Source of the DNA: Bacillota bacterium
GTDB taxonomy: Bacteria; Bacillota_I; Bacilli_A; RF39; UBA660
NCBI GenBank assembly: GCA_015059495.1
Contig: SVAI01000001.1
Coordinates: 435,246 to 499,245, forward strand
Direction: 5' to 3'
Length of the DNA: 64,000 bases
In this document: positions 4,029-44,992 of the stretch, piece by piece
How positions within the stretch are numbered: position 1 is the first letter of the stretch
Layout of the letters: each line of letters starts with the position of its first letter
The notes under the pieces: model-generated
What the model was told of the DNA's origin: nothing
The model's input: only the letters and a program-made list of their open reading frames with translations
Database searches by the model: none
Made by a program: the position numbers and the translations under genes

Positions 4029-4598
4029 ATGAAATATGATTTCGAAAAAGAAATTATAGAGCAAAAGCCCCTTACTGCCAAGCAAAAAAATATTCTAGAT
4101 TATATTAAAAAATATATCGCAGAATATAATTATGCACCAACTATTAGAGAAATTGGCGAAGGAAATAACTTGTCATCCTCAGCAACTGTACATACTTATA
4201 TAAATATTTTAATTACTAAGGGATGGTTAAAGAAGAGTGACTATAAATTTAGAACTCTTGAAGTAGTCGGCGAAAACGAATACTTAAACCAAGCTAGAGG
4301 CATAACTACTCTACCATTAATCAACGAAGATAAAGACTTTAAAGAACAACAAGAAAATGGTAAGAAAATTGATATTTATAATGATCAATTTGCCGTAACT
4401 AAAGAATCTCTAGTAATTAAAATAACTAAAGATGATATCTTTCAAAAAGATGATTACATTATCACTAAACCATCTAGTAAATATAAGGATAGTGATTATG
4501 TAGTTACTCTAAAAGATGATAAAGTTAGTATTGTAAAATACAAGGCTAATACTAAAAATATTATTGGTAAAGTCATTGCATCAATAAGAAAATATTAA
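4029..4598 (+). CDS. LexA-like transcriptional repressor with degenerate (probably non-cleavable) S24 domain
   Basis: N-terminus LTAKQKNILDYIKKYIAEYNYAPTIREIGEGNNLSSSATVHTYINILITKGWL aligns with the LexA winged-HTH (B. subtilis LexA: LSKRQLDILRFIK...[34 protein letters not shown]). The C-terminal end ...NIIGKVIASIRKY matches LexA ...ILGKVIGVFR. The GDSM catalytic-Ser position reads KDDI, and the segment between the Lys region and the C-terminus is deleted. RBS GAGGTG sits 7 nt upstream. Confidence 0.6.
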   Translation: MKYDFEKEIIEQKPLTAKQKNILDYIKKYIAEYNYAPTIREIGEGNNLSSSATVHTYINILITKGWLKKSDYKFRTLEVVGENEYLNQARGITTLPLINEDKDFKEQQENGKKIDIYNDQFAVTKESLVIKITKDDIFQKDDYIITKPSSKYKDSDYVVTLKDDKVSIVKYKANTKNIIGKVIASIRKY

Positions 4599-4630
4599 AA
4601 AAGATGTTTTAATAAACATCTTTTTTATTT
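4598..4630. terminator. bidirectional rho-independent terminator between the convergent lexA-like and TasA-like genes
   Basis: aaaagatgttt-taat-aaacatctttt hairpin flanked by A-run and T-run. Confidence 0.55.
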
Positions 4631-6283
4631 TGACTCTCGAGGAGAATTAATTGCTAACTTGTATGGATTATTTGATGTACCATTTCCTTCAAAAATTACA
4701 ACTGAATTATCAAGATAAACTACAGGGAAAACTCCCTTTACATTACTTCCAGTTTGTAATCCCATGTAACCACTTTCTCCTATACCAAAAGACTCACTAG
4801 CATTTCCTGACCAAGCATAAGGTGGAAATATCCAATACCAAATATTTTTGACTAGCCAAGTATTATTATAACAATCTGAAATATTTTCTATATTACTTTC
4901 ATCCATCCACATAAGCGGACCATAACTTATGCACGCACTTCTATTTAAGTTAGCACCACCACTACTTGAATAACCATAATCACTAGCATACAATAAGCCA
5001 ACCTTAGCAATAGTACTAGTAGTTCTTTCAACACTATCATTACAATATTTAGAAGATGCACATCCTTTTGAAATACTATTGCCTCTTTCATATGTATAAA
5101 AATCAACTATTGTAGTTTGACCAAGAGTATTATTCATTTCAGCTGGTAGAGAACCATGCTTCCAATTAACAGTACTAATCATTTTTTGAGCAGTTGCATT
5201 TAATGTTGAAGCTGGCTTAGCAGCTTTCTTTTTATTACCATCGCCATTATACCATTTACCATCAGTACCAACAGTTATATTACCTAAATAATCAGTATTT
5301 AATTCTCTATATAAGTCAGCACCTTCATAAGTTCCAGATGATCCCCATTGATTTATTCCCCATCCACTATTTATACTTGATGCACTAGAATCCCAAGAAT
5401 AATTACCAAGAGATACATCTCTTATAATTTTAACTCTAGGAGCAACATTACCATTTTGATCTTCAATATTATTAAATACACCAACAATTCGCCATTTTTC
5501 ACAAGTTGAATCCCCCATTACTTCAGGATCATCACTAGTACAATTAAAATAAACATAATTATTAGGATTTGCACCATAATATCTTAAGTTATTATCTTCA
5601 GTTCCATATTCTCCTAAAGTATCAACACCATCATATTCTAAATCACTAGCACCATTATTTTTTAATACAGTTAAATAATCAACTGCAGGTTTAATACTAG
5701 ATTCAAGATAATTGTTAATGTTTATCTTAGCAGTAAATCTTCTATTTTTGTTATCATCTTGATTAGAATTATCTTCCCTAAATTTAAATCTAATTAAGTA
5801 TGTATCAACTCTATCAACATCAATAGATCTAGTACTACCTATTTTTGAACTCTCACCAACTATACTTGGTACTACTTCATCATCCACTATTTTAGTAAAA
5901 CCAGTTAAATCCCCATAAACAAAAGTAAAATCAGTAGAATCATTTCTATAATAAAGATCATATACAAGATCATTTTTATCTACAAAAGTATTAATTATTT
6001 CAGACAAGTAAATATTATAGGCAGTTTCAACACTTCCATTATTATGAACACTAAACATTTTATCAATTTGAGCACCTGGAATAGCATCAAAAACAACTTT
6101 TTCACCATTATCATGAAAGTCTAAACTTAAAGTCCCACTAGTAATAACATTACTATTAGCATTATTATTACCTTCAACACTTGCAGTATAATATGCAAAA
6201 GATGCTACTGTAGCAATAGATAAAATTAAAAATGCTCCAATAACAACTAATAATTTAAAATATTTATTCATCATGTCAATCAC
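4625..6283 (-). CDS. secreted protein with SipW-cognate-type signal peptide and TasA/camelysin-like N-domain fused to a large C-terminal extension
   Basis: The TM/h-region is followed by SFAYYTASVEGNNNANSNVITSGTLSL (compare CalY GGTFAYFSDKEVSNNTFATGTLDL). The downstream block ...PGAQIDKMFSVHNNGSVETAY... resembles the TasA beta-sandwich (PGD...V.N.G). It is paralogous to five other genes in the window. Confidence 0.6.
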   Translation of the reverse strand: MIDMMNKYFKLLVVIGAFLILSIATVASFAYYTASVEGNNNANSNVITSGTLSLDFHDNGEKVVFDAIPGAQIDKMFSVHNNGSVETAYNIYLSEIINTFVDKNDLVYDLYYRNDSTDFTFVYGDLTGFTKIVDDEVVPSIVGESSKIGSTRSIDVDRVDTYLIRFKFREDNSNQDDNKNRRFTAKININNYLESSIKPAVDYLTVLKNNGASDLEYDGVDTLGEYGTEDNNLRYYGANPNNYVYFNCTSDDPEVMGDSTCEKWRIVGVFNNIEDQNGNVAPRVKIIRDVSLGNYSWDSSASSINSGWGINQWGSSGTYEGADLYRELNTDYLGNITVGTDGKWYNGDGNKKKAAKPASTLNATAQKMISTVNWKHGSLPAEMNNTLGQTTIVDFYTYERGNSISKGCASSKYCNDSVERTTSTIAKVGLLYASDYGYSSSGGANLNRSACISYGPLMWMDESNIENISDCYNNTWLVKNIWYWIFPPYAWSGNASESFGIGESGYMGLQTGSNVKGVFPVVYLDNSVVIFEGNGTSNNPYKLAINSPRESK

Positions 6284-6476
6284 ACCTACTACTATTTATA
6301 TAATTATAATATCAAATTTATTAAATAAAAAAAAGATTTATTTTCATAAATCTTATAAATATAAAGAAGAAGATTTTGTTGTGATTTTAGAAGATAAACA
6401 TGTTAAAACTGTTAAATACACCAAGAAGCCAGAGAAAGTTATTGGAAAAATAATCGCAGTTTACAAGAAATTTTAA
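6273..6476 (+). pseudogene. remnant of a LexA-like gene (C-terminal fragment only)
   Basis: The ORF C-terminus FVVILEDKHVKTVKYTKKPEKVIGKIIAVYKKF is clearly homologous to the C-terminus of the 4029-4598 protein (YVVTLKDDKVSIVKYKANTKNIIGKVIASIRKY). The N-terminal 35 aa are low-complexity and there is no HTH. Confidence 0.45.
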
Positions 6477-6503
6477 AAGAGGTATATTAATACCTCTTTT
6501 AAA
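6474..6503. terminator. rho-independent terminator
   Basis: aaaagaggtata-ttaa-tacctctttt hairpin with flanking T/A runs, between the LexA remnant and the convergent TasA-like gene end. Confidence 0.5.
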
Positions 6504-8070
6504 TTGCTAATTTATAAGGATTATCATATGATCCATCACCTTCAAGTACATATACATCATTTTTTAAATAAAGTGCAGGTCTAACACCATTCTTTTCAAA
6601 TAACATTCTCTCAGTTATATCACCACTCGAAGAAAGACAATAAACTGTATTTGCTGAATTTGATGTTCCAGAAGCAGTAATAGTAAATAAAGTTATATAA
6701 TTATATTCATTCCCAACTCCATATAGCCAAGAGGACGAACCGCAAAAAGTGTACCTATAACTCCAAAGTGAAAAATCAGTTTCCAAACATGTTCTTTTAT
6801 CATAATTATCACTACCACTAGTAGAATAACCGAATTCACTAACAGACATTAATCCGATCTTTCCAACCCACGATGATGTTCTTACAACAGTGTCACTACA
6901 ATCAACACCACCACTACAATATTTACCGTTATTTTCACTTCTTTCTAAATTATACATATTTTTAGGATTAAAACTCAACGTTGAATATCCTTTAGAACCT
7001 GTATACCATTTAGCTTCTTGAATCATATTTAAAGCATTACTCTTAATTGTTGATGTAGGTCTTTTTACAGTTCTTCTATTATAATAATCACCAACCCAAT
7101 ATCCATCAGCACCTATGGTATAATTACCCAAATAATCGGTATTTAATTCTCTCATAAGAAACGACCCAGGATATAAAGTACCATCTTCATATACAGATTC
7201 ACCCCATTGATTAACACCAGTACCTTGATTAACAGCTTTAATCGAACTATCCCAAGAATACAATCCTAAATATCCACTATGTATAATCTTAACTCGTGAA
7301 TCAGCATTACCTTCACCATCTTCGATATTATTAAAAATTCCCATAATTTGCCACTTTTGACAGGTATAAATAGACATTTCATCAGGATTAGAAGTATTAC
7401 AATTAAAATAAACATAATTATTTGGAAATTTTCCTACATATCTTAAATTATTATCTGAAGTTCCAACATCACCTAAAGTATCAACACCATCATATTCCAA
7501 ATAACTAGCACCTGCATTTTTATCTTCAATAATCTTAGTAGCTAATCTAATTTTAGGTACTTCCTCAGATAGTTCAACTTTAGCTCTAAATGTTTTACCC
7601 TTATTATTATCTTGATTTAAGTTAGTCTCTTTAAAAGTAATCTTTAATGTATAATTGTGAGTTTGACCAACACCAATTGCAACATTAGATGCTATTTTTG
7701 TATTTGTTTCTGGACAAGTAGTTTGATTAATATTATAACCTTCGCTACTAATTAATTCATAAACTAAATCACTTTTATTAGCGAAATCATTTATAACATC
7801 ATTTAAATATATATCATAAGCGGTATCAACTGTACCAGTATTTCTAACACTAAATGCTAAAGTTACATAGTCCCCTGGTAACATATTTGAAGTTGTACCA
7901 ACAACATTACCATTTTCAAAAGTAACCTCCATATACCCAGTAACAATAACAGTATTACTAGCCGTAGCATTCCCACCTATACTCGCAGTAAAATAAGCAT
8001 AAGATGTAATAGATACTAAAGCAATAATTAAAACACTTAATATATACAATATAGTTTTTTTATTATTCAT
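6499..8070 (-). CDS. secreted TasA/camelysin-like N-domain protein with C-terminal extension (paralog)
   Basis: The signal peptide is followed by SYAYFTASIGGNATASNTVIVTGYMEV. Residues 24-160 are identical to the 8087-9754 product. The central YDGVDTLG...YVYFNC...QWG...RELNTDYLGN module and the C-terminal NGVRPALYLK...NPYKLAI are shared with paralogs. Confidence 0.6.
   Translation of the reverse strand: MNNKKTILYILSVLIIALVSITSYAYFTASIGGNATASNTVIVTGYMEVTFENGNVVGTTSNMLPGDYVTLAFSVRNTGTVDTAYDIYLNDVINDFANKSDLVYELISSEGYNINQTTCPETNTKIASNVAIGVGQTHNYTLKITFKETNLNQDNNKGKTFRAKVELSEEVPKIRLATKIIEDKNAGASYLEYDGVDTLGDVGTSDNNLRYVGKFPNNYVYFNCNTSNPDEMSIYTCQKWQIMGIFNNIEDGEGNADSRVKIIHSGYLGLYSWDSSIKAVNQGTGVNQWGESVYEDGTLYPGSFLMRELNTDYLGNYTIGADGYWVGDYYNRRTVKRPTSTIKSNALNMIQEAKWYTGSKGYSTLSFNPKNMYNLERSENNGKYCSGGVDCSDTVVRTSSWVGKIGLMSVSEFGYSTSGSDNYDKRTCLETDFSLWSYRYTFCGSSSWLYGVGNEYNYITLFTITASGTSNSANTVYCLSSSGDITERMLFEKNGVRPALYLKNDVYVLEGDGSYDNPYKLAI
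7571..8004. repeat. copy 1 of a ~434 bp near-identical direct repeat (5' coding region of a TasA-like paralog)
   Basis: Direct reading shows the DNA at 7571-8004 and 9252-9685 is identical except for about 3 positions (for example gctc/gtac near the start and a/g at 7620/9300). Confidence 0.8.
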
Positions 8071-8086
8071 CTAAATCCTCCTTATC

Positions 8087-9754
8087 TTAATTTGAAATAG
8101 TTAATTTATATGGATTAGATGATGTTCCTTCACCTGAAGCTATAGATACTTCATTTTTTAAGAATAATGCTGGACGAACACCACCATTTTGGCTTGCATA
8201 ACCATCACTTGTAGTAATATCAAAGCCATGGTATTCGCTCGTCCAATAACCAGCACCACTAATGGAGCTACCGGTATAAGCAACACAATCAGTCCAATAA
8301 TTCATTGTTGTGGACGGAGACAAAAAATTATCCAAATAATCGATTTTAATAATCCATGAACTAGTTATACAATCACCTGTATATGATGTATTATTATAGT
8401 CTAAGCAAACATTTCTACTTAAACCATTAACTGGTTTTATAGAATAAGCAAAATCACTAGTATATATTAAAGCAATTTTTCCAATCCATGTTGTTGTTCT
8501 TACAACTGTATCATTGCAAACATTATCATAATCTTCCATATTTTTACACTGATCAGGATTATTATTACTTCTCTCACCTACATAAAAATTTTTAGCTGTC
8601 CAAGTTGAATACTCATGTTTTAAGGTTGTAACATCATAATATCCTTCTCTAGCTCCCAAATTCCATTTTACAGTTTGAATCATATTTTGAGCATTTTGAT
8701 TTAAAGTTGTTGTTGGCATGTCTATTTTATGTATAACTTCATCGGTTCCACTATTATAAATGTGGGTATACCACTTACCATCTGTTCCAACTGTTATATT
8801 CCCTAAGTAGTCAGTATTTAATTCTCTCATAAGGTCTGCACCTTCATATGGTGTACCATCTTCATATGTTGATGCACCCCATTGATTAATACCCCAACCC
8901 TGATTTATTTCTTCTACAGAATCATCCCAAGAATAATTACCTAGTGAATCATCTCTCATAATCTTTATACGAGAAGCACTATTTCCATTTTCGTCTTCAA
9001 TATTATTAAATACACCTACTATTCTCCATTTTTCACAAGTTTCATCATTCATTAAAGATGGATTTGTAGTTGTACAGTTAAAATAAACATAATTATTTGC
9101 ATCACTACCTACATATCTTAAGTTATTATCTATTGTACCTTCTTCACCTAATGTTGCAACACCATCATATTCTAAATCAGTTGCACCATTATTTTTTAAA
9201 TCAGTTAAAAAACTTACTATACCATTTGTAGGACTATCATTATTTTCCTCAAGTTCAACTTTAGTACTAAATGTTTTACCCTTATTATTATCTTGATTTG
9301 AGTTAGTCTCTTTAAAAGTAATCTTTAATGTATAATTGTGAGTTTGACCAACACCAATTGCAACATTAGATGCTATTTTTGTATTTGTTTCTGGACAAGT
9401 AGTTTGATTAATATTATAACCTTCGCTACTAATTAATTCATAAACTAAATCACTTTTATTAGCGAAATCATTTATAACATCATTTAAATATATATCATAA
9501 GCGGTATCAACTGTACCAGTATTTCTAACACTAAATGCTAAAGTTACATAGTCCCCTGGTAACATATTTGAAGTTGTACCAACAACATTACCATTTTCAA
9601 AAGTAACCTCCATATACCCAGTAACAATAACAGTATTACTAGCCGTAGCATTCCCACCTATACTCGCAGTAAAATAAGCATAAGAAGCTATTGTTGCAAC
9701 ACTTATTACAAAAATTGATAAAACCAAAAGAAAAGATTTTACTCTTCTATTCAT
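8087..9754 (-). CDS. secreted TasA/camelysin-like N-domain protein with C-terminal extension (paralog)
   Basis: Same N-terminal motif and domain as above. It is 16 bp upstream of the next paralog with an AGGAGG RBS in the gap, so the two are probably co-transcribed. Confidence 0.6.
   Translation of the reverse strand: MNRRVKSFLLVLSIFVISVATIASYAYFTASIGGNATASNTVIVTGYMEVTFENGNVVGTTSNMLPGDYVTLAFSVRNTGTVDTAYDIYLNDVINDFANKSDLVYELISSEGYNINQTTCPETNTKIASNVAIGVGQTHNYTLKITFKETNSNQDNNKGKTFSTKVELEENNDSPTNGIVSFLTDLKNNGATDLEYDGVATLGEEGTIDNNLRYVGSDANNYVYFNCTTTNPSLMNDETCEKWRIVGVFNNIEDENGNSASRIKIMRDDSLGNYSWDDSVEEINQGWGINQWGASTYEDGTPYEGADLMRELNTDYLGNITVGTDGKWYTHIYNSGTDEVIHKIDMPTTTLNQNAQNMIQTVKWNLGAREGYYDVTTLKHEYSTWTAKNFYVGERSNNNPDQCKNMEDYDNVCNDTVVRTTTWIGKIALIYTSDFAYSIKPVNGLSRNVCLDYNNTSYTGDCITSSWIIKIDYLDNFLSPSTTMNYWTDCVAYTGSSISGAGYWTSEYHGFDITTSDGYASQNGGVRPALFLKNEVSIASGEGTSSNPYKLTISN
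9252..9685. repeat. copy 2 of the ~434 bp near-identical direct repeat
   Basis: See copy 1. The repeat lies in the adjacent paralog, 1681 bp apart in the same orientation. Confidence 0.8.
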
Positions 9755-9907
9755 AAAAAATCACTCCTATAATTATATTTTTTTTAATTATCATGTTTAA
9801 AGACTTCATCTATAATAAGAATATCATTTAATTTAACATTTATCAATTACCTAAAGATAAATTTACGATTACTTTTACAAATAAAAAAAAGTCTTTATAT
9901 AAGACTT

Positions 9908-11047
9908 TTATTTAAAAAACATAAACACTACTAAGAATAAAATTAGCAAGATTAAAACTATACATCCATTAGCTCTTTCAGAAGTAGTTGCTTTATCACT
10001 TACACCAACAGCCATAGATGATAAATATCCACCAATTAAACCACCAATGTGTGCAAAATTATCAATGCCAGGTGTAATAAATCCTAAAGCTAAATTAAAT
10101 ATGATTAATGGTACTATTTGAGATTTAATAACTGTACTTAAATATAATCTATAATGATAACCAAAGTAAACTAACGCACCCATAAGACCAAATATAGCAC
10201 CAGATGCACCAACACTATAAGAATTTGAGAATACCATAGACATTAAACATCCAACTATACCACTAAATAAATATATTAATATATATTTAGTTTTACCTAG
10301 GAATGTTTCTATTTGATTACCTATTACATATAAAGCATACATATTAAATATTAAATGCATTATATTAGCATGCATAAACATAGCACTAAATACTCTATAA
10401 TAGTCTCCTGCTACAAATAATTCTCTATTAGCAGCAAAAGTATATAACATTGATGGATACATATAACTTAATAAATATATTAATACATTTATAACTATTA
10501 AAGCGTATGTAATAACTATTGTTTTAGGTTTAAAAGTCTTCTCATAAGCTTTATTTTCTTTAGCAGTCTTTTCATTAATATCATTAGTAACATTAATAAT
10601 TAAATCAATACCTTTAGTATCATTTAATAAATTATCCTTTATATTAGGAAAAGCATCTTTAATAAACTTATTTTTCTTAATATCTCCAACATTTTTAATC
10701 TTAACTGAATCCATATCTTTATCTTCAACTAACTTAACACCAGTATTTAGATCTAAGAATATATTTAAAGTATTAACTTTAAAAGATAAAGTTTTCTTTT
10801 TTATTTGTTTTATAACATTCTTAGTTTTATATAAATCTGCCTCTATTTGTTCATTATTATGAATATAATTAGTATTAATTCTTATAATTCTATAAGGACC
10901 ATCTAAATTCTCTAACCATACTTCATTTTTAACACCATTAACTATAATTGGTTGATAGTTTTCTTCAGTAATAAAATAATGAACTAAACGCATAACGATG
11001 TCTTCTTTTTTATCAACTACAACGTTCATAATTCTACCTCTTTTCAT
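9908..11047 (-). CDS. rhomboid family intramembrane serine protease with N-terminal cytoplasmic domain (GluP/YqgP-like)
   Basis: C-terminal half is polytopic with the catalytic GASGAIFGL (GxSG) motif and the later AHIGGLIGGY (His). The stop codon is embedded in an aaagtctt-tata-taagacttt terminator hairpin. Confidence 0.8.
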   Translation of the reverse strand: MKRGRIMNVVVDKKEDIVMRLVHYFITEENYQPIIVNGVKNEVWLENLDGPYRIIRINTNYIHNNEQIEADLYKTKNVIKQIKKKTLSFKVNTLNIFLDLNTGVKLVEDKDMDSVKIKNVGDIKKNKFIKDAFPNIKDNLLNDTKGIDLIINVTNDINEKTAKENKAYEKTFKPKTIVITYALIVINVLIYLLSYMYPSMLYTFAANRELFVAGDYYRVFSAMFMHANIMHLIFNMYALYVIGNQIETFLGKTKYILIYLFSGIVGCLMSMVFSNSYSVGASGAIFGLMGALVYFGYHYRLYLSTVIKSQIVPLIIFNLALGFITPGIDNFAHIGGLIGGYLSSMAVGVSDKATTSERANGCIVLILLILFLVVFMFFK

Positions 11048-13636: not shown

Positions 13637-14404
13637 TTAATCAATCAATTTTTTTAGTTTTAATATCGCACTTTTTTCAATTCTAGATACTTGAGCTTGT
13701 GATATATCTAAACTAGATGCTATTTCACTTTGTGTCATACCATAAATATATCTACTTTCTAATACTTCTCTTTCTCTTAATTTAATATGTTCTAAAGCTT
13801 TTCTTAATGCTATTAAACTATCTTTATCTTTATTAGTATCTGCTATTTGATCACATAAATATATAGTATCTCCATTATCACTATATATTGGATCATATAA
13901 AGAATATACATCTTTTAAGCTATTTAATGCTAATCTAATATCATATTCATTTAAATTTAAATCTCTTTTAATATCTTCTATTGAAGGTTCTTTCCCATTA
14001 TTAATTAAATAATCTTCTTTATACTTTAATATTAAATAAGCATTATCTTTAATACCTCTAGATATCCTAATACTTGTATTATCTCTAATATATCTTTTTA
14101 TTTCTCCTAATATTAGAGGTACTGCATATGTAGAAAATAAACAATTATATGATAAATCAAAATTATCTACTGCTTTAATTAATCCTATTACCCCTATTTG
14201 AAATAAATCATCTAAATTATTATTTTTATTATTAAATCTCTTAATAATAGATAATACTAACTTTAAATTACCATTAATTATTATTTCTTTATTTTCTTTC
14301 TTACCATCTCTTAATCCTTTAAATAACTCTACCATATCTTTATTTGATAATACTTTTAAATTATTAGTATTAATACTAGTTATTTCAACACTATATTTAC
14401 TCAT
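13637..14404 (-). CDS. SigF/SigG-family (group 3, sporulation-type) RNA polymerase sigma factor
   Basis: Aligns along its length with B. subtilis SigF: DLFQIGVIGLIKAVDNFDLSYNCLFSTYAVPLILGEIKRYIRDN, DNGDTIYLCDQIAD, LREREVLESRYIYGMTQSEIASSLDISQAQVSRIEKSAILKLKK. No spoIIAA/AB or spoIIGA neighbours. Confidence 0.8.
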   Translation of the reverse strand: MSKYSVEITSINTNNLKVLSNKDMVELFKGLRDGKKENKEIIINGNLKLVLSIIKRFNNKNNNLDDLFQIGVIGLIKAVDNFDLSYNCLFSTYAVPLILGEIKRYIRDNTSIRISRGIKDNAYLILKYKEDYLINNGKEPSIEDIKRDLNLNEYDIRLALNSLKDVYSLYDPIYSDNGDTIYLCDQIADTNKDKDSLIALRKALEHIKLREREVLESRYIYGMTQSEIASSLDISQAQVSRIEKSAILKLKKLID

Positions 14405-14449: not shown

Positions 14450-15136
14450 TTATACTAAATTAGATAAATAATTAACAATCTCATTAATATTAAATAATAA
14501 CACAAATATTATACTTAAGAATATAATACCAATTATTATTATACCTATAGGTTTAAATTGATTAGATTGTTTAACTATTATTAAATTCTTATCTTTTAAT
14601 TCATTTAATATATTATCTATAGTATTTATATTATAATTACTTTCTTTTAAATCTAATAAAGACTTTCTAACATCTATATTAGGTATAGTATCAATAACTG
14701 CTTTAAATATTTCATTTAAATCATTATTATATTTATGATTACCTATAACATTTCTAAAAGTTAGTGCTAAAGAATTACCAATTCTATTAGATACTATATC
14801 TAAAGAATTCTTTAAATCTTTAGTAGTATTATATGATAACTTAAGCATATTAAATAAAAGAATAGCTTCATCATATAACTTATCACTTCTTATTTTAATC
14901 TTATTATCTATTAATATTAATGTATATAAATAATAAAATGATATAGATATTATTAATGCTAATAGCAATCCATATTTAGGTACTAATAAACATATAATAA
15001 ATAAGAATATTGATATTAATAATCTAGTTACTAAAAAATACTCTAATTTTAATTTATTATTAGGTCCTAAATAAGACATCTTTTTATTATATTTATTAAT
15101 ATATTTCTTACTAAAAATATTCTTTAATATATTCAT
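14450..15136 (-). CDS. TadC-like (type II secretion system F-domain) membrane protein
   Basis: 228 aa with N-terminal TM pair, helical cytoplasmic segment and C-terminal TM. Position and size fit the Tad locus inner-membrane platform. No strong motif. Confidence 0.4.
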   Translation of the reverse strand: MNILKNIFSKKYINKYNKKMSYLGPNNKLKLEYFLVTRLLISIFLFIICLLVPKYGLLLALIISISFYYLYTLILIDNKIKIRSDKLYDEAILLFNMLKLSYNTTKDLKNSLDIVSNRIGNSLALTFRNVIGNHKYNNDLNEIFKAVIDTIPNIDVRKSLLDLKESNYNINTIDNILNELKDKNLIIVKQSNQFKPIGIIIIGIIFLSIIFVLLFNINEIVNYLSNLV

Positions 15137-16113
15137 TTTCTAGCCTCCATCATCTTTCTAATAGTATGAATAAAGACTATATATATAAATACTATTACTT
15201 CTAATATAATTATTCCATATACATTATTAAATACATTATTAAAGTAATTAAAATCATTAATAGACATAAATAATATTATAGATAAAGGAAGTAACATAAA
15301 TACTATTTTAATAACATTTAATATTGTATTTAAAGAATCTTTATAAGTATTTTTCTTATCATAATATTCAAAATTACTTCTAACTATATGAAATGTATCT
15401 TCTAAATTATCTGAATCTATATCAAGTAAATGATATATAACTCTAATCTCAGGTATTCTAGTTCTTTTATAAAATCTTCTAAATGCTTGAGTTAAAGATA
15501 TATTATAAGATAAATCTATTAATATTCTTTGATATTCATCTGCTATATCATCATCTAATTCTCTAACTACTTTACTTAAAGCATTATATATATTAGTTTT
15601 AGATATGTTATCATCTAATACTATAATAGATTCATATAACTTATTAGATATATTCTTACATTTCTTTTCATATCTAATTTGCCAATATAAACTAGGTAAA
15701 ACAATTCCAAGTATAACAAATATAACAAGTAATATAATATTAAAACTAAATACTCTAGCTAATACTAAAAATAAATATAAAAGAATTGATAATATTAAAG
15801 ATATTAATATTACAGTTATATAATCTATTGGACTCTTAAAATCCTCTTCTTTAATTAATATGTATTTTTCATATCTAGAAGATAACTTCATTAAAACTCT
15901 ACTTTTATTTAATAAATTACTAATTAAATGTACTAAATTCCATAATACATGAGATATCTTTTCAAATGTAGTCGTATCATCAAAATCTTTTTTAGATAAA
16001 GAAAAATTACTAATTCTAGTTTCTAATAAAGATGATCTAATTGAATATATTACATTAAAGATAATAACTAAGGAGATAAATATTAAAATGAGTTGTATTA
16101 CATATGCATTCAT
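15133..16113 (-). CDS. TadB-like (type II secretion system F-domain) membrane protein
   Basis: 326 aa with topology similar to TadB/GspF-family platform proteins. Overlaps its neighbours (operon). Confidence 0.4.
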   Translation of the reverse strand: MNAYVIQLILIFISLVIIFNVIYSIRSSLLETRISNFSLSKKDFDDTTTFEKISHVLWNLVHLISNLLNKSRVLMKLSSRYEKYILIKEEDFKSPIDYITVILISLILSILLYLFLVLARVFSFNIILLVIFVILGIVLPSLYWQIRYEKKCKNISNKLYESIIVLDDNISKTNIYNALSKVVRELDDDIADEYQRILIDLSYNISLTQAFRRFYKRTRIPEIRVIYHLLDIDSDNLEDTFHIVRSNFEYYDKKNTYKDSLNTILNVIKIVFMLLPLSIILFMSINDFNYFNNVFNNVYGIIILEVIVFIYIVFIHTIRKMMEARK

Positions 16114-16125
16114 AATTTATCCCCC

Positions 16126-17424: not shown

Positions 17425-18193
17425 CCCTCTTTTCAGTGATATCAGCTGCTATAGTAAGTAATGTTGAATAGTCTTTTTGATATACTCTAGCTACATCTTT
17501 TAATAATGTTGGTATATGTCCATTCATTAATATTCTATCAATATTTTCAATAAAGAATTCAGTAGATAAAGTATAATCTATATTTGCTTGTATAGTTTTC
17601 TTAATATCATACATAGAAAAATAATCTTTAAAAGGATTATTAGAATTATTTAATAATACTTTATAATTATCTATTCCTAAATTCTTTAATATAGCAAGAA
17701 CTGATCTAGTACTCTTTAAATTTAATGGATCATTATTAATCATAAATAATATATCATCTACTTTATCCATTAAATATAAAGTTGTTGGTCCAAGATCATG
17801 ATTAGAATCTATTAATATAACATCATAGATAAATCCAGCTTGATCTATAATCATATCTAAATATCTTAAATCAATCTTAGAGGCATCTCTAGGATCTTTA
17901 GGACATGCAATAGCGCTAATATATTTATTATATTTTAAAACATAATTATCAAAATCTTCGAAGACATTATTTTTTAAATCTTCACTCATTTCATATACAG
18001 ATTTATTATAAGATTTATTTAATGCTAGAGCTATTCCACCACTAGTTAAATCTAAATCTATAATTAATACTTTCTTCTCTAAAGAGCAGATTATACCTGC
18101 TAAATCTAAAGTAAATATGGTTTTACCCACGCCACCTTTAGTTGAAGCAATTAAAACTGATTTTGATTTTTTAGTACTTGCCATACTTACCAA
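17408..18193 (-). CDS. ParA/MinD-superfamily ATPase, CpaE/TadZ-like
   Basis: Deviant Walker A KGGVGKT (ASTKGGVGKTIFTLDLA). 4 bp overlap with the CpaF-like gene. Confidence 0.7.
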   Translation of the reverse strand: MVSMASTKKSKSVLIASTKGGVGKTIFTLDLAGIICSLEKKVLIIDLDLTSGGIALALNKSYNKSVYEMSEDLKNNVFEDFDNYVLKYNKYISAIACPKDPRDASKIDLRYLDMIIDQAGFIYDVILIDSNHDLGPTTLYLMDKVDDILFMINNDPLNLKSTRSVLAILKNLGIDNYKVLLNNSNNPFKDYFSMYDIKKTIQANIDYTLSTEFFIENIDRILMNGHIPTLLKDVARVYQKDYSTLLTIAADITEKRGDIHE

Positions 18194-39959: not shown

Positions 39960-41855
39960 TTAATTAGTTCTTAAAGTAAAGTATCCTGCTTTATTAGCAG
40001 AAGGATTATCTATTCTAGCATATTCACCATTTATATGACTATCAGTATAAGTAGTTCCAGCTCCACCTTTTAATTTAGTACTACCAATAAACATATTACC
40101 AGCACTATAAGATGAAGGATGAGCAAAATCACTAGGTACATAAACAGTTTCAAGTTCAGTACAATAATTCATCATATATTTAAGACTAGTAACCTTAGAA
40201 GTATTAAACTTAGGACCTAAATCAAGAACTCTAATAGATGATAACCAAGTAAACATAGCTTGCATATTAGTAACATTTGATGTATCAAAATTATTGCCTA
40301 AATTTAAATCAGTTAATGCATGCATACTAGCAAACATTGATTGCATAGTTGTTACTTTAGAAGTATCAAACTTATCACCTAAATCTAAACTAGCGACATT
40401 CTTTAACCCTGCAAACATACTTCTCATATAGCTAACATTTGATGTATCAAAATTAGAACCCAAATCTAATGATTCTAAAGCATCACAACTTTCAAACATA
40501 CTATTCATATTAGATACTCTACCAGTATTAAATTTATCACCTAAATCTAATGATTTAAGATTCTTCATATTATAAAACATATATTTCATATCACTTACAT
40601 TAGATGTATCAAAATTAGATCCTAAATCTATACTTTCCATACTTTGTAGATTAAAAAACATTCCTGACATATTCTTAACATTACCAGTATTAAAATTATT
40701 ACCAAAATTAATAGATGTAATATTAGCACAATTATAAAACATATCTTCCATAGTAGTAACATCACTTGTATCAAAGCTGTTTCCAAAATCTATAGCTTGT
40801 ATATAATAACTATTATAAAACAATCCATACATATTCTTAACACGAGATGCATTTAATTTTTCTAAATTTAAACTAGAATATCCCATGTTATTTGAAAACA
40901 TATAAGAACTATTTTCATTCATATAAATAGTAGGATTTTCAGAACTTATATATAATATTCCATTATAAACAAAAGCATAAATATCATCATCTCTATTATC
41001 AGATGAAACATCCATAATTGTAACATTTTCTAATATTTGAGAAGGTAAATCAGATATTTTTGTATTACTAATGGATAAAGCACGTATATATAATTTACCA
41101 TCATTTATAGTGCTTAATAAAGTATTATTATAATATTCCTCACATGTTAGACCAGATGTTTCAAAATCACTTTTACTAGCACAATAAGCATCTAAATCAA
41201 CACCAACATGATTTCTAGCCGATTCAACTGATAACTCACTAACTATTTGATTAAAGGTAGGACCATCAACAAGTTCAGCTACTCTTTCAGCTTCTTTATA
41301 ATCATTTATACTTATTTTACCCTTAAACTTTTTACCCTTATTATCATCTTGATTAGTTCCATCATCTTTAAAATAGAAAATTATTGTATAAGCATGAGCT
41401 TTACCAGCGCTTATCGAACAAGCAGAAAAAATTTTAGATTCTTCTCCTACCTCACTTGGAACAACTCTTTCTCCATCTACAGAACAACCATCTTCAAAAA
41501 TTTCAGAATTATGTTCATAATTAGATATGGAGTCAACATAATAAACTAAATCATTTTTATCAGCAAATGTATTTATTATTTCAGATAAATATACATCATA
41601 AGTAGTATCCATATTTCCTGAATTATAAACAACAAAAGACTTTTCTACACGTTGTGTTGGATAAGCATTATTTAAAGATACTTGATCGCCATCATAAAAT
41701 TCTAATCTTAAATCTCCAGATGTAATAACTGTATCATAAACACTCTCGTTACCTTTAACATTAGCTACGAAATACGCATAAGATGCACTAGTAACCAACG
41801 ATAATATTAAAAAGGCTGCAACTAATACAAGTGTTTTTATATATCTATTCTTCAT
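39960..41855 (-). CDS. secreted TasA/camelysin-like N-domain protein with C-terminal DUF285-type 26-residue surface repeats
   Basis: N-terminus SYAYFVANVKGNESVYDTVITSGDLRL plus a TasA-like domain (YLSEIINTFADKNDLVY shared with the 4625-6283 product). The C-terminal half has at least 8 tandem repeats of the form LDLG.NFDTSNVT.M..MF. Confidence 0.65.
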   Translation of the reverse strand: MKNRYIKTLVLVAAFLILSLVTSASYAYFVANVKGNESVYDTVITSGDLRLEFYDGDQVSLNNAYPTQRVEKSFVVYNSGNMDTTYDVYLSEIINTFADKNDLVYYVDSISNYEHNSEIFEDGCSVDGERVVPSEVGEESKIFSACSISAGKAHAYTIIFYFKDDGTNQDDNKGKKFKGKISINDYKEAERVAELVDGPTFNQIVSELSVESARNHVGVDLDAYCASKSDFETSGLTCEEYYNNTLLSTINDGKLYIRALSISNTKISDLPSQILENVTIMDVSSDNRDDDIYAFVYNGILYISSENPTIYMNENSSYMFSNNMGYSSLNLEKLNASRVKNMYGLFYNSYYIQAIDFGNSFDTSDVTTMEDMFYNCANITSINFGNNFNTGNVKNMSGMFFNLQSMESIDLGSNFDTSNVSDMKYMFYNMKNLKSLDLGDKFNTGRVSNMNSMFESCDALESLDLGSNFDTSNVSYMRSMFAGLKNVASLDLGDKFDTSKVTTMQSMFASMHALTDLNLGNNFDTSNVTNMQAMFTWLSSIRVLDLGPKFNTSKVTSLKYMMNYCTELETVYVPSDFAHPSSYSAGNMFIGSTKLKGGAGTTYTDSHINGEYARIDNPSANKAGYFTLRTN

Positions 41856-41955
41856 ATTATCACTACCTTATACATATTATCATTTTTAATAAAAAAAGTA
41901 AATTAATTTTATACAATATATTTCAAATAAAAAAAGAAGATATAAATCTTCTTTT

Positions 41956-43740
41956 TTATTTAATACCTCCACCAGCAGAGTCACAGTCAGACCATGACGA
42001 AGGTACACTACCGCTTGGTGTATATCCAGCGCTATATCCAGTATCACAAAATGCACTAGAACCATTCGTAACATTTGATATATCAAAATTATTTCCAAGA
42101 TTTAAGCTAAAATTTTGAGCATTATAACCCGCATCAGTAAACATATTTGACATATCATAAACATTAGAAGTATTAAAATTATTTCCTAAATCTATTGTTA
42201 AAGAATTAGCATTATAACCAAATTCCCCAAACATATGAGACATATTAGTAACACTAGATGTATCAAAGTTATTTCCTAAAACCAAATTAATATTAGCACC
42301 AGAAGCTCCAGCATTATAAAACATACTACTCATGTTTCTTACATACTTAGTATATAAATTATCTATGTGATCTATTCTTTCAAAAGGCATACCACTTAGT
42401 AATTCAGAAGTACTATAAGGAACTACCATATTTTCAAAATCAACAACACTAATTTTTCTATTATCTTCCCACGTCATAAAATCATAAGTATATTTATCCA
42501 TTTCTTCATCATAACTTAACAAACTAGGATTTTTTACAACATATACATCATCTCTTGCTACTCCAGTAGAATTAAAAGCTAATGTATATTTAGAATCATT
42601 TTTTATATACTTATAAATATATAAATCAAGTGTATTACCAGTAGGAATACAATTACCTAAATATCTATTTGGAGGATCATTTAAACATTCTTCAAGTGAA
42701 ATACCATGAATGCTACCATCTACAAAATTTTTTATAGAAACAAGCTGAGATTTTAATTCACAAGAAAAATTATATGCTCCGTTCGAATCCAAAAATTCAT
42801 AACAACTATTTTCATCATCAAAAATCAAATTATATGTTTTAGACTGATATTTTTGTTTATCAGCGTTAAATTCGCACATATAAGCAGAATTATCATTTTG
42901 GCATTCTTCTAATGTATCATATTCATTACGTGACATTGGTATAGTATATTTATTTTCTTTCATTTCACATAAAACTGTAAATCCCTCACTAGAATTTTCT
43001 AACGCTTGAGTATTACATTCCTCTAATGAATAGTAATTCGGATCAAAAAACTCCTCTTCATAATATTCATAATTAGCAATCTCCATGGTTGCTGGAGAAC
43101 AACTACCATAACCATTATTACTTATAGCATTATTACAATCTTGTTCATTGCTATAATTCTCATGATTATATTCATTTGCATAAAGATATGCAAATACAGG
43201 TGTTTGTGCAACTTCAATTTCTTCAATTCCAATTATAGAACTAAATGTAACCCCTTGATTATCACCTTGATCAGTATCATCAACTTTAAATGTAATAGTT
43301 AATATATAATGATGAGTTTGACCAACACCTATTCCTACTCCACTAGCAAACTTTCCACTTACAGATGGTGCAACTGTTTCATCTATATTAAAACCACCAT
43401 CATCAGATACTAAAGTATACACCAAATCATTTTTATCAACAAATGAATTAATTACATTATTAAAATATAAATCATAATAAGCTGTTACAGTACCAGTGTT
43501 AGACACTTCAAATGGTACCATAACGCTTTGACCCGGTATCATATTATCAGAAGAGCCAATAATATTACCTTGACTAAAGCTAACAGACATATTACCTGTA
43601 GTTATTACCATTTCTTGTGATCTACCAGCAACAGCCCCACTAAAATATGCATAAGATACTAAAGATACTATACAAAAAACAGAAAGACATATTGAAATTA
43701 TTGCTATTTTATTCTTTTTAGATAAATTCATTTTGCACAT
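41956..43740 (-). CDS. secreted TasA/camelysin-like N-domain protein with C-terminal DUF285-type repeats
   Basis: N-terminus SYAYFSGAVAGRSQEMVITTGNMSV. C-terminal repeats LGNNFDTSSVTNMSHMF / LGNNFNTSNVYDMSNMF / LGNNFDISNVTNGSSAF. Confidence 0.65.
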   Translation of the reverse strand: MCKMNLSKKNKIAIISICLSVFCIVSLVSYAYFSGAVAGRSQEMVITTGNMSVSFSQGNIIGSSDNMIPGQSVMVPFEVSNTGTVTAYYDLYFNNVINSFVDKNDLVYTLVSDDGGFNIDETVAPSVSGKFASGVGIGVGQTHHYILTITFKVDDTDQGDNQGVTFSSIIGIEEIEVAQTPVFAYLYANEYNHENYSNEQDCNNAISNNGYGSCSPATMEIANYEYYEEEFFDPNYYSLEECNTQALENSSEGFTVLCEMKENKYTIPMSRNEYDTLEECQNDNSAYMCEFNADKQKYQSKTYNLIFDDENSCYEFLDSNGAYNFSCELKSQLVSIKNFVDGSIHGISLEECLNDPPNRYLGNCIPTGNTLDLYIYKYIKNDSKYTLAFNSTGVARDDVYVVKNPSLLSYDEEMDKYTYDFMTWEDNRKISVVDFENMVVPYSTSELLSGMPFERIDHIDNLYTKYVRNMSSMFYNAGASGANINLVLGNNFDTSSVTNMSHMFGEFGYNANSLTIDLGNNFNTSNVYDMSNMFTDAGYNAQNFSLNLGNNFDISNVTNGSSAFCDTGYSAGYTPSGSVPSSWSDCDSAGGGIK

Positions 43741-43742
43741 CC

Positions 43743-44888
43743 CTACTTTTCTAAAATTATAACTGGTCGAACACCATAATGAACCTGATAGTATTTATAA
43801 TCATATTCATAATTATCCCAAACGAATTTTCCAGTTTTGTCCACTGCTACAATACTATAAGCACCAGATGCAGTACCAGACCAATAAGACGTTTGATAAA
43901 CCCATTCAGGCGCATTATGTGTACAGTCATTACCCAAAGACCAGCATCCTAAGCTATTCAATTCACTTTCAGTTATTAATCTGCCTGATACTCTTGCACC
44001 CTGACCATTTAAATAATTTACATAATATTCTACGTATTCAGCAATAGAATTAATATAAGTTCCATCATCATTTTTATTATTAGTATAAACATAAGCATGA
44101 TAATTATTACCATATTCAGGTTTAACATGATTTTGTGAATCATTCCAATAATTTATACTTGAAAATGGAACAGGAGAACCGTAACCAGCAAATTGCAAGC
44201 CATCTTTAAATCCATATTGAGCACCATCATCTCCAACATTTAAATTCCACTTAGAAAGAAGTTTAACATGTTCTTCGTCTTCTTGGCCTATTACATAGAA
44301 TTGTTCATTTGCTATTTTAACTATAGATCCAACAGTATATAAATCTCCTGATACAATCGTATATGGTGGCTTTGTATCTTCACTTAAACCTATTTTTGCG
44401 CTAAAAATCTTACCTTTATTATCATCTTGGTTTACACCAGTTTCATCAAAAGTTACTCTTAGTGTATAATTTTGTGTTGTACCAACAGGTAAACTTATAT
44501 GACGTTTAATTGCTTGATTAACGCTTGGACACGTTGCTTGTGCAACTGTTGTTCCAGAACCATCAATAAGTTCACATACTAAATCTTCTTTTGTAACAAA
44601 TGTATTTATAATATCATTTAAATCAACACTATAAAACATATCTACTGTACCTGTATTTTGTACAGAAAACGATTTTTCTATATATTGTCCTGGCAACATA
44701 TTTGATGTTGAACCAATAACACTGCCATCAATATAAGTTATTTCCAGCTGACCTGTTGTAACAACTGTTGCTCGTGATACACCAGTAATAGTTGCAAAGA
44801 AATGAGCGTAAGACACAGTTGAAATTAAGCAAACAATAAAAGCACATATTGCAACTAAAAATAATTTTTTATTCTTAGTTAATTTCAT
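43743..44888 (-). CDS. secreted TasA/camelysin-like N-domain protein with distinct C-terminal domain
   Basis: N-terminus SYAHFFATITGVSRATVVTTGQLEI plus a TasA-like domain. Ends in GVRPVIILEK (compare GVRPALYLK / GVRPALFLK in cluster-1 paralogs). 2 bp from the next paralog. Confidence 0.6.
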   Translation of the reverse strand: MKLTKNKKLFLVAICAFIVCLISTVSYAHFFATITGVSRATVVTTGQLEITYIDGSVIGSTSNMLPGQYIEKSFSVQNTGTVDMFYSVDLNDIINTFVTKEDLVCELIDGSGTTVAQATCPSVNQAIKRHISLPVGTTQNYTLRVTFDETGVNQDDNKGKIFSAKIGLSEDTKPPYTIVSGDLYTVGSIVKIANEQFYVIGQEDEEHVKLLSKWNLNVGDDGAQYGFKDGLQFAGYGSPVPFSSINYWNDSQNHVKPEYGNNYHAYVYTNNKNDDGTYINSIAEYVEYYVNYLNGQGARVSGRLITESELNSLGCWSLGNDCTHNAPEWVYQTSYWSGTASGAYSIVAVDKTGKFVWDNYEYDYKYYQVHYGVRPVIILEK

Positions 44889-44916
44889 ATTTAAGTCTCC
44901 TATATCATTAATGTAA

Positions 44917-44945
44917 TTATATAATAATTTTTATTTTCTAACAAC
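44917..44945 (-). promoter_or_regulatory. sigma-A-type promoter for the 44888 to 39960 TasA-like gene cluster
   Basis: Minus strand TTGTTA (plus 44940-44945), 17 nt spacer, TATAAT (plus 44917-44922), then an AGGAGA RBS before the ATG at 44888. Confidence 0.5.
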
Positions 44946-44992
44946 AAAAAAATAGAATTATTTACATTAAAAAAAGATTGGATAAACCAATC

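Follow-up and report, generated by a model that had tools for sequence, protein, structure and literature searches.

Three tandem genes, all on the minus strand and paralogous to one another (43-48% identical overall), are found in the analysed 64,000-nucleotide stretch (the window) of the DNA of a small-genome rumen bacterium; they are referred to as genes 1 to 3 and are listed with the associated features in Table 1. Gene 2, the product of which is identical to the NCBI MAG protein E7159_02145, lies 16 bp downstream of gene 3, and the two are probably co-transcribed. To judge by its sequence, a hairpin of which the stem begins inside the gene 2 stop codon (6499-6501) is likely the terminator of this gene 3-gene 2 unit, in which case gene 1 would have its own promoter. 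The start of gene 1 is probably the ATG at 6274, which yields a product of 549 aa (NCBI P0031 has 549 aa; the JGI call has 548 aa). Genes 2 and 3 share a tract of 99% DNA identity and are 70-76% identical outside it, a pattern that reads as recent gene conversion or recombination, homogenising the N-domain while the cargo diverges.

An earlier note on this DNA, made from the letters alone, had described several motifs shared by the three products. Two of these, S(Y/F)AY(F/Y)TAS..GN and PGD/PGA..FSV.N.G..TAY..YL..IN.F..K.DLVY, were recovered as quoted, and the central motif LEYDG..DNNLRY..NNYVYFNC..KW.I.G.FNNIED..YSWD..NQWG..RELNTDYLGN is likewise present in genes 1-3. Of the shared C-terminal ending, G.G...NPYKL stands, but GVRPAL does not extend to gene 1, which has the divergent KGVFPVVYLDN and in which the N-domain insert is longer.

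Table 1. Positions of the genes and predicted features in the window
Feature	Position	Strand	Remarks
Gene 1 (ORF 552 aa), architecture as gene 3	4625..6283	-	PF12389 21.2 bits
Hairpin with 14-bp stem, then T-run, at 3' end of gene 2	6472..6503	-	likely terminator
Gene 2 (523 aa), architecture as gene 3	6499..8070	-	PF12389 25.6 bits
Gene 3 (555 aa)	8087..9754	-	PF12389 23.5 bits
Gene 3, C-type-lectin-like/DUF6273-related module (predicted)	8090-9190	-	residues 189-555
Gene 3, linker helix (predicted)			around residues 175-188
Gene 3, TasA-like beta-sandwich (predicted)	9245-9616	-	residues 47-170
Putative gene-conversion tract in gene 3 N-domain coding DNA	9252..9551	-	99% DNA identity to 7571-7870 in gene 2
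Gene 3, conserved donor-strand-like segment	9617-9676	-	residues 27-46
Gene 3, signal peptide (predicted)	9677-9754	-	residues 1-26
Paralog 4 (631 aa), N-domain and DUF285/PARCEL leucine-rich-repeat cargo	39960..41855	-	PF12389 26.5 bits; DUF285 3.6e-37
Paralog 5 (594 aa), N-domain, Cys-rich spacer and DUF285 repeats	41956..43740	-	PF12389 26.7 bits; DUF285 3.2e-15
Paralog 6 (381 aa), N-domain and smaller C-terminal domain, end YGVRPVIILEK	43743..44888	-	PF12389 29.5 bits

A TasA-like domain behind a candidate donor strand

Matches to PF12389, PDB profile matches and Foldseek matches agree in placing the first ~180 aa in the TasA/camelysin (Peptidase_M73) superfamily, as had been proposed. The window holds six paralogs with the same N-domain (genes 1-3 and three at 39960-44888), which score 21.2-29.5 bits with PF12389, five of them at or above its curated gathering threshold of 22.5 bits; the match of gene 1 is just under this cutoff, yet it spans residues 14-178. 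Paralog 6 in addition weakly matches the BsaA-family model TIGR04090 (E=1.8e-4), and no cargo-less TasA-like 'major subunit' was found within the window. PF12389 is matched by 69 of 75 representatives of the N-domain family (E<=1e-3; best E=2.3e-11). When an N-domain-only profile was compared with PDB sequences, TasA (5of1, E=0.0019; 8aur, E=0.0024) and AbpX came out on top, and the top Foldseek match in the PDB is the TasA fibre 8aur (E=8.6e-5, prob 1.0), with a low TM-score to TasA (0.3) and with Pfam scores near threshold. In the AF2 model (nine strands, residues 48-167) the predicted fold is a jelly-roll/beta-sandwich similar to TasA. Three conserved Cys pairs count among the extracellular features, and neither the HExxH zinc motif nor an LPxTG sorting signal ([LS]PxTG) is present in any of the six paralogs.

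The signal region has a Sec-type n/h/c layout with an invariant small-x-Ala site (S-Y/F-A) followed by Y-F/Y-T-A; comparison by eye upholds the likeness of this cleavage-site and donor-strand region to CalY/TasA. At the predicted cleavage site Ala is invariant at -1 and Ser/Thr is conserved at -3. The AF2 model shows a clean TM helix at residues 3-23, after which residues 25-44 are predicted to be disordered in the monomer (pLDDT 36-49); A26, F28, A30 and V42, within the disordered segment, are invariant or near-invariant. We infer from the model that this conserved ~20-residue segment is a candidate donor strand, and the donor strands of BsaA and TasA show the same conserved-but-disordered behaviour (PMC11580942, PMC9674648). 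The label 'SipW-cognate' that the signal had been given was not sustained: TIGR04088 has no match at E<=1 on genes 1-3, and an NCBIfam search of the three proteins matched nothing meaningful.

A single lectin-like domain as cargo

The remainder of the proteins had been described as a central module and a C-terminal ending, neither of which could be assigned to a family. Structure prediction instead folds the central and C-terminal motifs as a single globular domain of ~370 aa (pTM 0.88), which, by fold similarity to solved members, is predicted to be of the C-type-lectin-like fold (CTLD / DUF6273 / DUF1566 / FGE superfamily). Its relation to DUF6273 is distant; nearest to it stands the N-terminal domain of the Thomasclavelia ramosa IgA protease (IgAse; PDB 9qa6), the only significant Foldseek match (E=2e-6). 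On the modelled fold this kinship is visible by structure only, the sequence profile of the C-module giving no IgAse match in the PDB. PF19789 (DUF6273) has no match at E<=1 on the window proteins; the domain is matched weakly by 7 of 95 C-module homologs (best E=0.003) and at 4e-9 by one N-domain family representative. The IgAse domain has been described as a CTLD-like DUF6273 (PMC12237041, PMC12402451) that is without the long loop, is not needed for the cleavage of IgA and is without an assigned function (PMC12237041); in phage DGR targets, DUF6273 serves as a receptor-binding domain of the C-lectin fold (PMC10743442). C-type lectins proper are marked by the long loop and by Ca2+/carbohydrate-binding motifs (EPN/QPD, WND), and IgAse has a zinc site (D78/H90/C126). 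The C-module varies most in a stretch directly ahead of its conserved GVRPA strand. Within the CTLD-like fold family, ligand-binding variability is usually carried in the region before that strand.

Size of the family and exchange of its parts

The N-domain profile recovers 6,604 cluster representatives at E<=1e-3 (676 at E<=1e-30), and homologs of the C-module number more than 1,258, counts that argue against a chance pattern. In all of the 150 best N-domain representatives the domain is placed at the N-terminus, and most of these proteins (166-1254 aa) are long enough for a C-terminal fusion; the cargo among the representatives comprises DUF285, Flg_new, LRR, GH5 cellulase and pectate lyase. 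The census bears out the earlier suggestion that the TasA fold, placed at the N-terminus, assembles or anchors a variety of cargo. Of the best 120 C-module homologs, 46 have a full TasA-like domain ahead of the module, 49 only a signal and a donor-strand-like peptide, and 6 the N-terminus of a type IV pilin. The short forms (signal, 'ARFE..YSLI.G' and lectin-like module), of which the same genome has two, keep exactly the donor-strand-like segment without the sandwich. Domain identities, family size, cargo diversity and the alternative N-terminal partners are direct observations.

Signal peptidases and neighbouring genes

The earlier statement that the window is without sipW holds, the best match in an unfiltered search with a SipW-type HMM being at E=1.3. 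A SipW-type (archaeal/ER-type, TIGR02228) signal peptidase was not found in the flanks (9.7 kb left, 7.4 kb right) or within 10 kb of the two short-form paralogs either; within the 1.25-Mb genome the search covered the window and its flanks, by regex and HMM scans, and these two contexts. A SipW of this genome was not located by homology search with the relatives' SipW or by a metagenome scan. In relatives, a SipW-type peptidase is encoded near family members (loci L021 and L061-L065), and TIGR04088 matches neighbours of family members. For instance, one relative has a family member of exactly this architecture in the midst of small TasA-like ORFs, with a TIGR02228-positive SipW-type peptidase 680 bp upstream of it, and a single array on human-gut contigs unites sipW and tasA-like genes with genes for a TIGR04088 protein, an N-domain-plus-CTLD protein and a C-module protein. 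A weak SipW-HMM match at locus L017 was set aside, as it is without the SipW catalytic motifs and by eye looks like a membrane-anchored LytM/M23-like protein. The earlier note had made the TasA reading depend on a SipW homolog in the genome, which is too strict given that, for archaeal TasA homologs, processing by the generic signal peptidase is assumed (PMC9245690).

The rhomboid gene that had been placed downstream lies on the same minus strand (9908-11047), hence transcriptionally upstream. Its adjacency is seen in the same species only and is not conserved outside it, on which ground the rhomboid was rejected as a dedicated processing enzyme. A Tad/type IV-filament-like locus (14450-18193; TadA-family ATPase, CpaE/MinD-like ATPase and two polytopic membrane proteins) lies 4.7 kb away, separated from genes 1-3 by the housekeeping genes rhomboid, rluD, lspA and sigG. 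Neither phage genes nor a reverse transcriptase or a template repeat were seen in the ORF lists, and a repeat scan of genes 1-3 and their surroundings (4500-9900) found no template repeat.

Proposed mechanism and alternatives

We consider it probable that genes 1-3 encode secreted, modular fibre or oligomer subunits of the TasA/camelysin superfamily that display a putative ligand-binding module. The predicted layout would be a Sec signal, a ~20-residue donor strand, a ~120-residue beta-sandwich, a short helical linker and a ~370-residue C-type-lectin-like domain. We infer that, after export, the signal would be cleaved, by a SipW-type enzyme if the genome has one and else by the general signal peptidase I, and that the N-terminal strand of one subunit would complete the beta-sandwich of another, be it a paralog or a cargo-less TasA-like subunit. 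The resulting cell-associated oligomers or fibres would hold the lectin-like module outward, where it may bind a glycan or protein ligand, with paralogs presenting LRR or enzyme modules. The bulky cargo on most family members could sterically hinder a homopolymer.

The products might instead be monomeric, membrane-tethered surface proteins in which the sandwich serves only as a stalk or spacer keeping the lectin-like module clear of the membrane, without polymerisation, the hydrophobic N-terminus being an uncleaved signal-anchor, or cleaved with non-covalent cell association. The clean TM helix, the lack of both a major-subunit gene and a SipW nearby, the bulky cargo in nearly all family members and the fact that BsaA oligomers are themselves membrane-anchored (PMC11580942) are in keeping with such a tether; we nevertheless regard it as rather unlikely, though still to be reckoned with, because the residues at -1 and -3 fit a cleavage site, the strong conservation of the ~20 residues past that site would be needless in a stalk, the short forms retain exactly this segment and no sandwich, the same cargo is grafted onto type IV pilins, and relatives place family members in sipW/tasA-like operons.

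It is very unlikely that the proteins are minor pilins or other substrates of the Tad-like machinery, processed by a prepilin peptidase and placed at the pilus tip. The ATPases and membrane proteins of that locus are close by, other organisms do have the C-module attached to genuine type IV pilin N-termini, and secretion of C. perfringens BsaC and BsaA partly depends on type IV pilus genes (PMC11580942); against this, the N-termini are of the Sec type and not class III signals (G|FTLIE, or more generally G|F/M-T-L-x-E, as in type IV and Flp pilins), N_methyl has no match on the window proteins (the motif is confined to other C-module carriers), unrelated housekeeping genes intervene, and the Tad ATPase is missing from all family loci of relatives. 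With the wrong signal type and no co-occurrence, the Tad-like locus was rejected as primary assembly machinery. Hardly to be credited is the view that the genes encode secreted camelysin-type metalloproteases or phage-derived receptor-binding/DGR-target proteins, which the Pfam name Peptidase_M73 and the DUF6273 domains among DGR targets of phage receptor-binding proteins (PMC10743442) would suggest: the metalloprotease reading was rejected for lack of HExxH in any of the six paralogs, the M73 'peptidase' label is itself regarded as a likely misidentification (PMC11580942), and the genes are surrounded by housekeeping genes, with none of the phage or DGR components mentioned above in view.

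Implications and comparison with known systems

TasA-type fibres are known as cargo-less biofilm scaffolds in Bacillus, Clostridium and archaea. The present family suggests that uncultured rumen/gut Bacilli have converted the same donor-strand module into an all-purpose N-terminal handle by which binding domains and polysaccharide-degrading enzymes are displayed. Tentatively, we can imagine heteropolymeric fibres of the TasA type, built by small-genome rumen/gut Bacilli independently of sortase and without chaperones, of which most subunits bear a functional head (lectin-like, LRR adhesin, GH5 cellulase, pectate lyase) and into which the short 'donor-strand-only' forms plug as initiating or terminal subunits, while gene conversion keeps neighbouring N-domains compatible and cargo cassettes turn over rapidly between strains. 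In function, such a protein-display filament would resemble a cellulosome or an adhesive pilus. If the subunits polymerise, this would be a new Gram-positive-type route to multifunctional surface filaments without sortase or chaperone-usher, with a bearing on fibre adhesion, plant-cell-wall degradation and host interaction. The module itself could find use as a self-assembling display scaffold. The DUF6273-like N-terminal domain of the T. ramosa IgA protease, for its part, gains a context and more than 1,200 relatives.

With TasA/CalY of Bacillus and BsaA of Clostridium perfringens the proteins share a Sec signal with an x-F/Y-A then Y/A-F cleavage region, a conserved putative N-terminal strand ahead of a beta-sandwich, and, in relatives, genes beside SipW-type peptidases. 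The sequence similarity is marginal (21-29 bits), and polymerisation of the gene 1-3 products is presumed. Unlike these stand-alone proteins of ~200-260 aa, genes 1-3 add a 370-aa lectin-like domain, and paralogs or relatives add LRR or enzyme domains; unlike the tapA-sipW-tasA or bsa-type operons, the locus is without sipW or tapA. TapA of B. subtilis and AbpB of Pyrobaculum, accessory proteins with extra domains from which the first fibre subunit receives a strand, resemble especially the short forms, in that a donor-strand-like N-terminal peptide precedes non-fibre domains, and the distal domains of AbpB have been proposed as adhesins (PMC9245690). This likeness is one of architecture; the cargo here is CTLD-like and the long forms include a complete acceptor sandwich.

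The C-module has the C-terminal GVRP-type strand in common with DUF6273 (PF19789), as found in the T. ramosa IgA protease (PDB 9qa6) and in the 'tentaclin' heads of phage DGR targets, but it is larger (~370 aa versus ~170 for the PF19789 model and 290 for the IgAse domain) and has its own strongly conserved N-terminal half (LEYDG..DNNLRY..RELNTDYLGN). A final parallel is offered by the modular type IV pilins of Streptococcus sanguinis (PilB with vWA, PilC with a lectin), in which a binding module is grafted onto a polymerising filament subunit, and the same lectin-like C-module occurs on type IV pilin N-termini in some relatives; here, however, the presumed polymerising part is a beta-sandwich with a candidate donor strand in place of a pilin alpha-helix, and different machineries would serve export and assembly.

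Results and Discussion

Organization of the genes and their genomic surroundings

The three genes of cluster 1 (genes 1 to 3) encode proteins with a mutual identity of 43-48%, in a window with a G+C content of about 25%. Gene 1 probably starts at the ATG at 6274; its product is listed with 549 residues at NCBI (the identical protein P0031) and with 548 in the JGI call. The product of gene 2 is identical in every residue to E7159_02145, a hypothetical protein of a Firmicutes bacterium MAG at NCBI (contig of 1,256,952 bp), where E7159_02140 is the counterpart of gene 1. Nearly identical contigs were recovered from JGI samples 3300021319 and 3300021326, and the related MAGs, from rumen and gut, bear the labels Erysipelotrichaceae, Tenericutes or Bacilli. 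Because genes 3 and 2 are separated by 16 bp and gene 2 ends in a hairpin with a 14-bp stem, which begins inside the stop codon and is followed by a T-run, genes 3 and 2 appear to be transcribed together, with gene 1 as a separate unit. The sequence motifs that the earlier note had quoted were all found in the three proteins, save that the ending GVRPAL(Y/F)LKN, held to be common to all, is present in genes 2 and 3 and reads GVFPVVYLDN in gene 1.

Positions of the features in the window
Feature	Position	Strand	Remarks
LexA-like gene	4029-4598	+	convergent to gene 1
Gene 1	4625-6283	-	ORF, 552 aa
LexA-like remnant	6273-6476	+	67 aa, convergent to gene 2
Hairpin	6503-6472		3' end of gene 2
Gene 2	6499-8070	-	ORF, 523 aa
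Near-identical tract, gene 2	7571-7870		300 nt
Gene 3	8087-9754	-	ORF, 555 aa
Near-identical tract, gene 3	9252-9551		300 nt
Rhomboid protease	9908-11047	-
sigG	13637-14404
Tad/type IV-filament-like locus	14450-18193	-	adjoins sigG and holA
TadA-family ATPase	16126-17424	-	in Tad-like locus
MinD/CpaE-like ATPase	17408-18193	-	in Tad-like locus
DUF2207 gene	38206-39894		flanks cluster 2
Cluster 2	39960-44952
Paralog	39960-41855		N-domain of genes 1-3, other C-terminus
Paralog	41956-43740		N-domain of genes 1-3, other C-terminus
Paralog	43743-44888		N-domain of genes 1-3, other C-terminus
LemA gene	44993-45547		flanks cluster 2
Sigma-70 gene (RpoD/SigA-like)	56534-57832	-
Sigma-70 gene (RpoD/SigA-like)	60100-61401	-

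The LexA-like protein has the LexA DNA-binding domain and no recognisable S24 catalytic motif. Since a remnant of the C-terminus of such a gene is convergent to gene 2, a tandem duplication of the unit 'cargo gene plus lexA-like gene' is suggested. The rhomboid protease, which has an N-terminal cytoplasmic extension of about 160 residues, had been placed downstream of the cluster; it actually lies directly upstream of gene 3, and the adjacency is probably coincidental because it was found in the same species only. Elsewhere in the window, the Tad-like locus also holds two polytopic membrane proteins that match no family, and the two sigma-70 genes, 2.3 kb apart, share about 75% nucleotide identity across their C-terminal 680 nt.

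The N-terminal domain belongs to the TasA/camelysin superfamily

Several lines of evidence bear out the proposal that the N-terminal domain of about 180 residues (N-domain) is TasA-like. All six paralogs in the window match PF12389 (Peptidase_M73, the TasA/camelysin family) with 21.2-29.5 bits, five of them above the gathering score of 22.5 bits, and in gene 1 and paralog 4 the match covers the entire domain. A profile of the N-domain alone has TasA as its best match in the PDB (5of1, E=0.0019; 8aur, E=0.0024); archaeal AbpX comes next. The AF2 model (pLDDT 79) consists of a transmembrane helix (3-23), a disordered segment (25-44), a nine-strand sandwich (48-167) and a linker helix (175-188), and Foldseek ranks the TasA fibre first among PDB structures (E=8.6e-5), with a Sulfolobus thread subunit also among the matches, the TM-scores being only about 0.3. 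We consider membership of the superfamily established, with divergent details.

Within the family, position -1 is always Ala and position -3 is a conserved Ser/Thr, in agreement with cleavage by a signal peptidase before Tyr27. Few parts of the domain are better conserved than the 20 residues past this predicted site (A26, F28, A30, V42), and these are nevertheless disordered in the model of the monomer. This candidate donor strand thereby resembles its counterparts in TasA (residues 28-38; PMC9674648) and BsaA (PMC11580942), for which the same combination of conservation and disorder in the monomer has been described. Asn35, Lys148 and Glu149 are conserved as well and might make up an isopeptide triad of the BsaA kind. 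The paralogs of the window contain no LPxTG motif.

The C-terminal module is lectin-like

The central module and the C-terminal ending, listed separately in the earlier note, turn out to form a single globular domain of about 370 residues (the C-module, residues 189-555 in gene 3; pLDDT 83.5, pTM 0.88). Its sole significant Foldseek match is the entry of the T. ramosa IgA protease (9qa6, E=2e-6). We attribute the match to the N-terminal domain of the protease, because the other matches are CTLD folds and this is the only CTLD-like domain of the protease. That domain (residues 31-321) is an enlarged C-type-lectin-like domain annotated as DUF6273, binds a structural zinc (site D78/H90/C126) and is not needed for the cleavage of IgA (PMC12237041, PMC12402451). 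As PF19789 does not match the window proteins, yet weakly matches 7 of 95 C-module homologs, the C-module is a distant sister of DUF6273 and not a member. Three Cys pairs and the N-terminal half of the module are conserved, the latter highly, whereas its residues ~300-340, which immediately precede the conserved GVRPA strand, form a hypervariable stretch that contains indels and is modelled with low confidence.

Combinations of carrier and cargo

The C-module has more than 1,258 homologs. Among the best 120, a full TasA-like domain precedes the module in 46, and in another 49 there is only a signal peptide with a segment of about 20 residues (...FSFA|RFES...YSLI.G...), which follows the same motif logic as the candidate donor-strand region; genuine type IV pilin N-termini (N_methyl, best E=1.8e-8) and another N-terminal region of about 280 residues are found in six each. 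Two such short forms, which have the signal, the donor-strand-like peptide and the C-module and lack the beta-sandwich, are P0022 (E7159_00195) and P0027 (E7159_01745), encoded by solitary genes elsewhere in the window's own 1.25-Mb genome.

The N-domain profile retrieved 6,604 cluster representatives (676 at E<=1e-30). Each of the best 150, with lengths of 166-1254 residues, has it at the N-terminus, which establishes the domain as a widely used N-terminal carrier of surface cargo. In the 75 of these 150 in which cargo families were scored, we counted DUF285 (17), Flg_new (7), pectate-lyase-like beta-helices (3), GH5 cellulase (2) and the ALK/LTK glycine-rich domain (2), next to BspA-type LRR, DUF4832/DUF4874, Big_3, Laminin_G_3, the M26 N-terminal region, DUF6273 and FGE-sulfatase; in relatives there are also subunits of about 200 residues that carry no cargo. 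A large surface protein of 1003 residues with the same type of cargo (Flg_new and DUF285 repeats), apparently devoid of the TasA-like N-domain, is encoded some 0.9-3.9 kb to the left of the window (L018, 11584-14595).

Gene conversion and cassette turnover

A stretch of 300 nt within the N-domain coding sequence is 99% identical between genes 2 and 3, which outside it share 70-76% of their nucleotides. The pattern indicates local and probably recent gene conversion, confined to and homogenising the putative assembly domain. Cluster 2 lies between LemA and DUF2207 genes, and in the closely related and collinear MAG contig CAMOFW010000007 the nucleotide identity on either side is 96% and 92%. 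The same interval (L015, 6344-9081) holds two different family genes there versus three in the window, and spans 2.7 kb versus 4.3 kb with only patches of ~68% identity. Judged from this comparison, cluster 2 is a strain-variable cassette hotspot, and the difference in gene content between such similar flanks points to a rapid turnover of the cargo genes.

Association with SipW

As had been noted, the window lacks a SipW-type peptidase: with filters off, the best hit of a SipW-type HMM had E=1.3, nor was a signal peptidase I of another type found in it. Neither the flanks (9.7 kb and 7.4 kb) nor the surroundings of the two short-form genes contain a SipW-type peptidase. Even a genome devoid of a dedicated SipW would not refute the TasA assignment, as archaeal TasA homologs are believed to be processed by a generic peptidase (PMC9245690).

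In relatives, the link between the family and SipW is real. On ENA scaffold_2286, P0017, with exactly the same architecture, is encoded 680 bp downstream of a SipW-type peptidase (TIGR02228, 76.6 bits; cutoff 51.85), in an array that further comprises another active copy (80.9 bits), a degenerate one without the serine and a number of small TasA-like ORFs; from a syntenic contig the cargo gene is missing. Human-gut contigs have an array of the order sipW(degenerate) - tasA-like - sipW - tasA-like - TIGR04088 protein - N-domain+CTLD - ... - C-module protein, and a gene with N-domain and/or C-module occurs within 10 kb in 10 of the 71 metagenomic loci that were fetched with this type of SipW.

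The sipW loci of relatives (L021, 1729-9928; L061, 8824-12194) contain two active archaeal-type SipW paralogs beside a degenerate one that has lost the catalytic Ser by substitution (...DNDEMEP...); the L021 locus also holds an inserted McrBC-like pair. This SipW type, of 250-300 residues, has a long charged C-terminal extension that ends in the conserved tail EYTIRLDLNEIQKNI.KSVK.

Interpretation and comparison with known systems

It is established that the products of the three genes are exported and modular, with a TasA-superfamily domain followed by a C-type-lectin-like module. Most likely, the signal would be cleaved at Ala26|Tyr27, after which donor-strand exchange would lead to oligomers or fibres that display a ligand-binding head; the paralogs could form heteropolymers, with short forms priming or capping these. 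The main alternative, that the proteins are membrane-tethered monomers with the sandwich as a spacer, we consider less likely: against a simple stalk speak both the grafting of the same head on type IV pilins and on a bare donor-strand-like peptide, and the presence of family members in sipW/tasA-like operons.

Other readings are unlikely. For a Tad pilus, the window does offer a Tad-like locus, in which no pilin gene was identified; the signals of the proteins are of the Sec type and have no N_methyl match, and the Tad ATPase is absent from the family loci of the relatives. For a protease, there is the name of the Pfam family; HExxH is absent from all six window paralogs. A phage/DGR origin might be considered in view of DUF6273, which in phages forms C-lectin-fold receptor-binding heads that are targets of diversity-generating retroelements (PMC10743442); the ORFs listed for the window include no phage gene or reverse transcriptase, and a repeat scan of 4500-9900 revealed no template repeat.

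A search of the full-text literature returned no description of the C-module family or of TasA-type subunits with lectin-like, LRR or glycoside-hydrolase cargo. What has been described are modular type IV pilins, the accessory proteins TapA/AbpB and the fibres of TasA, CalY, BsaA and AbpA/AbpX; these fibres are cargo-less, whereas the window proteins combine a TasA-type domain with lectin-like cargo.
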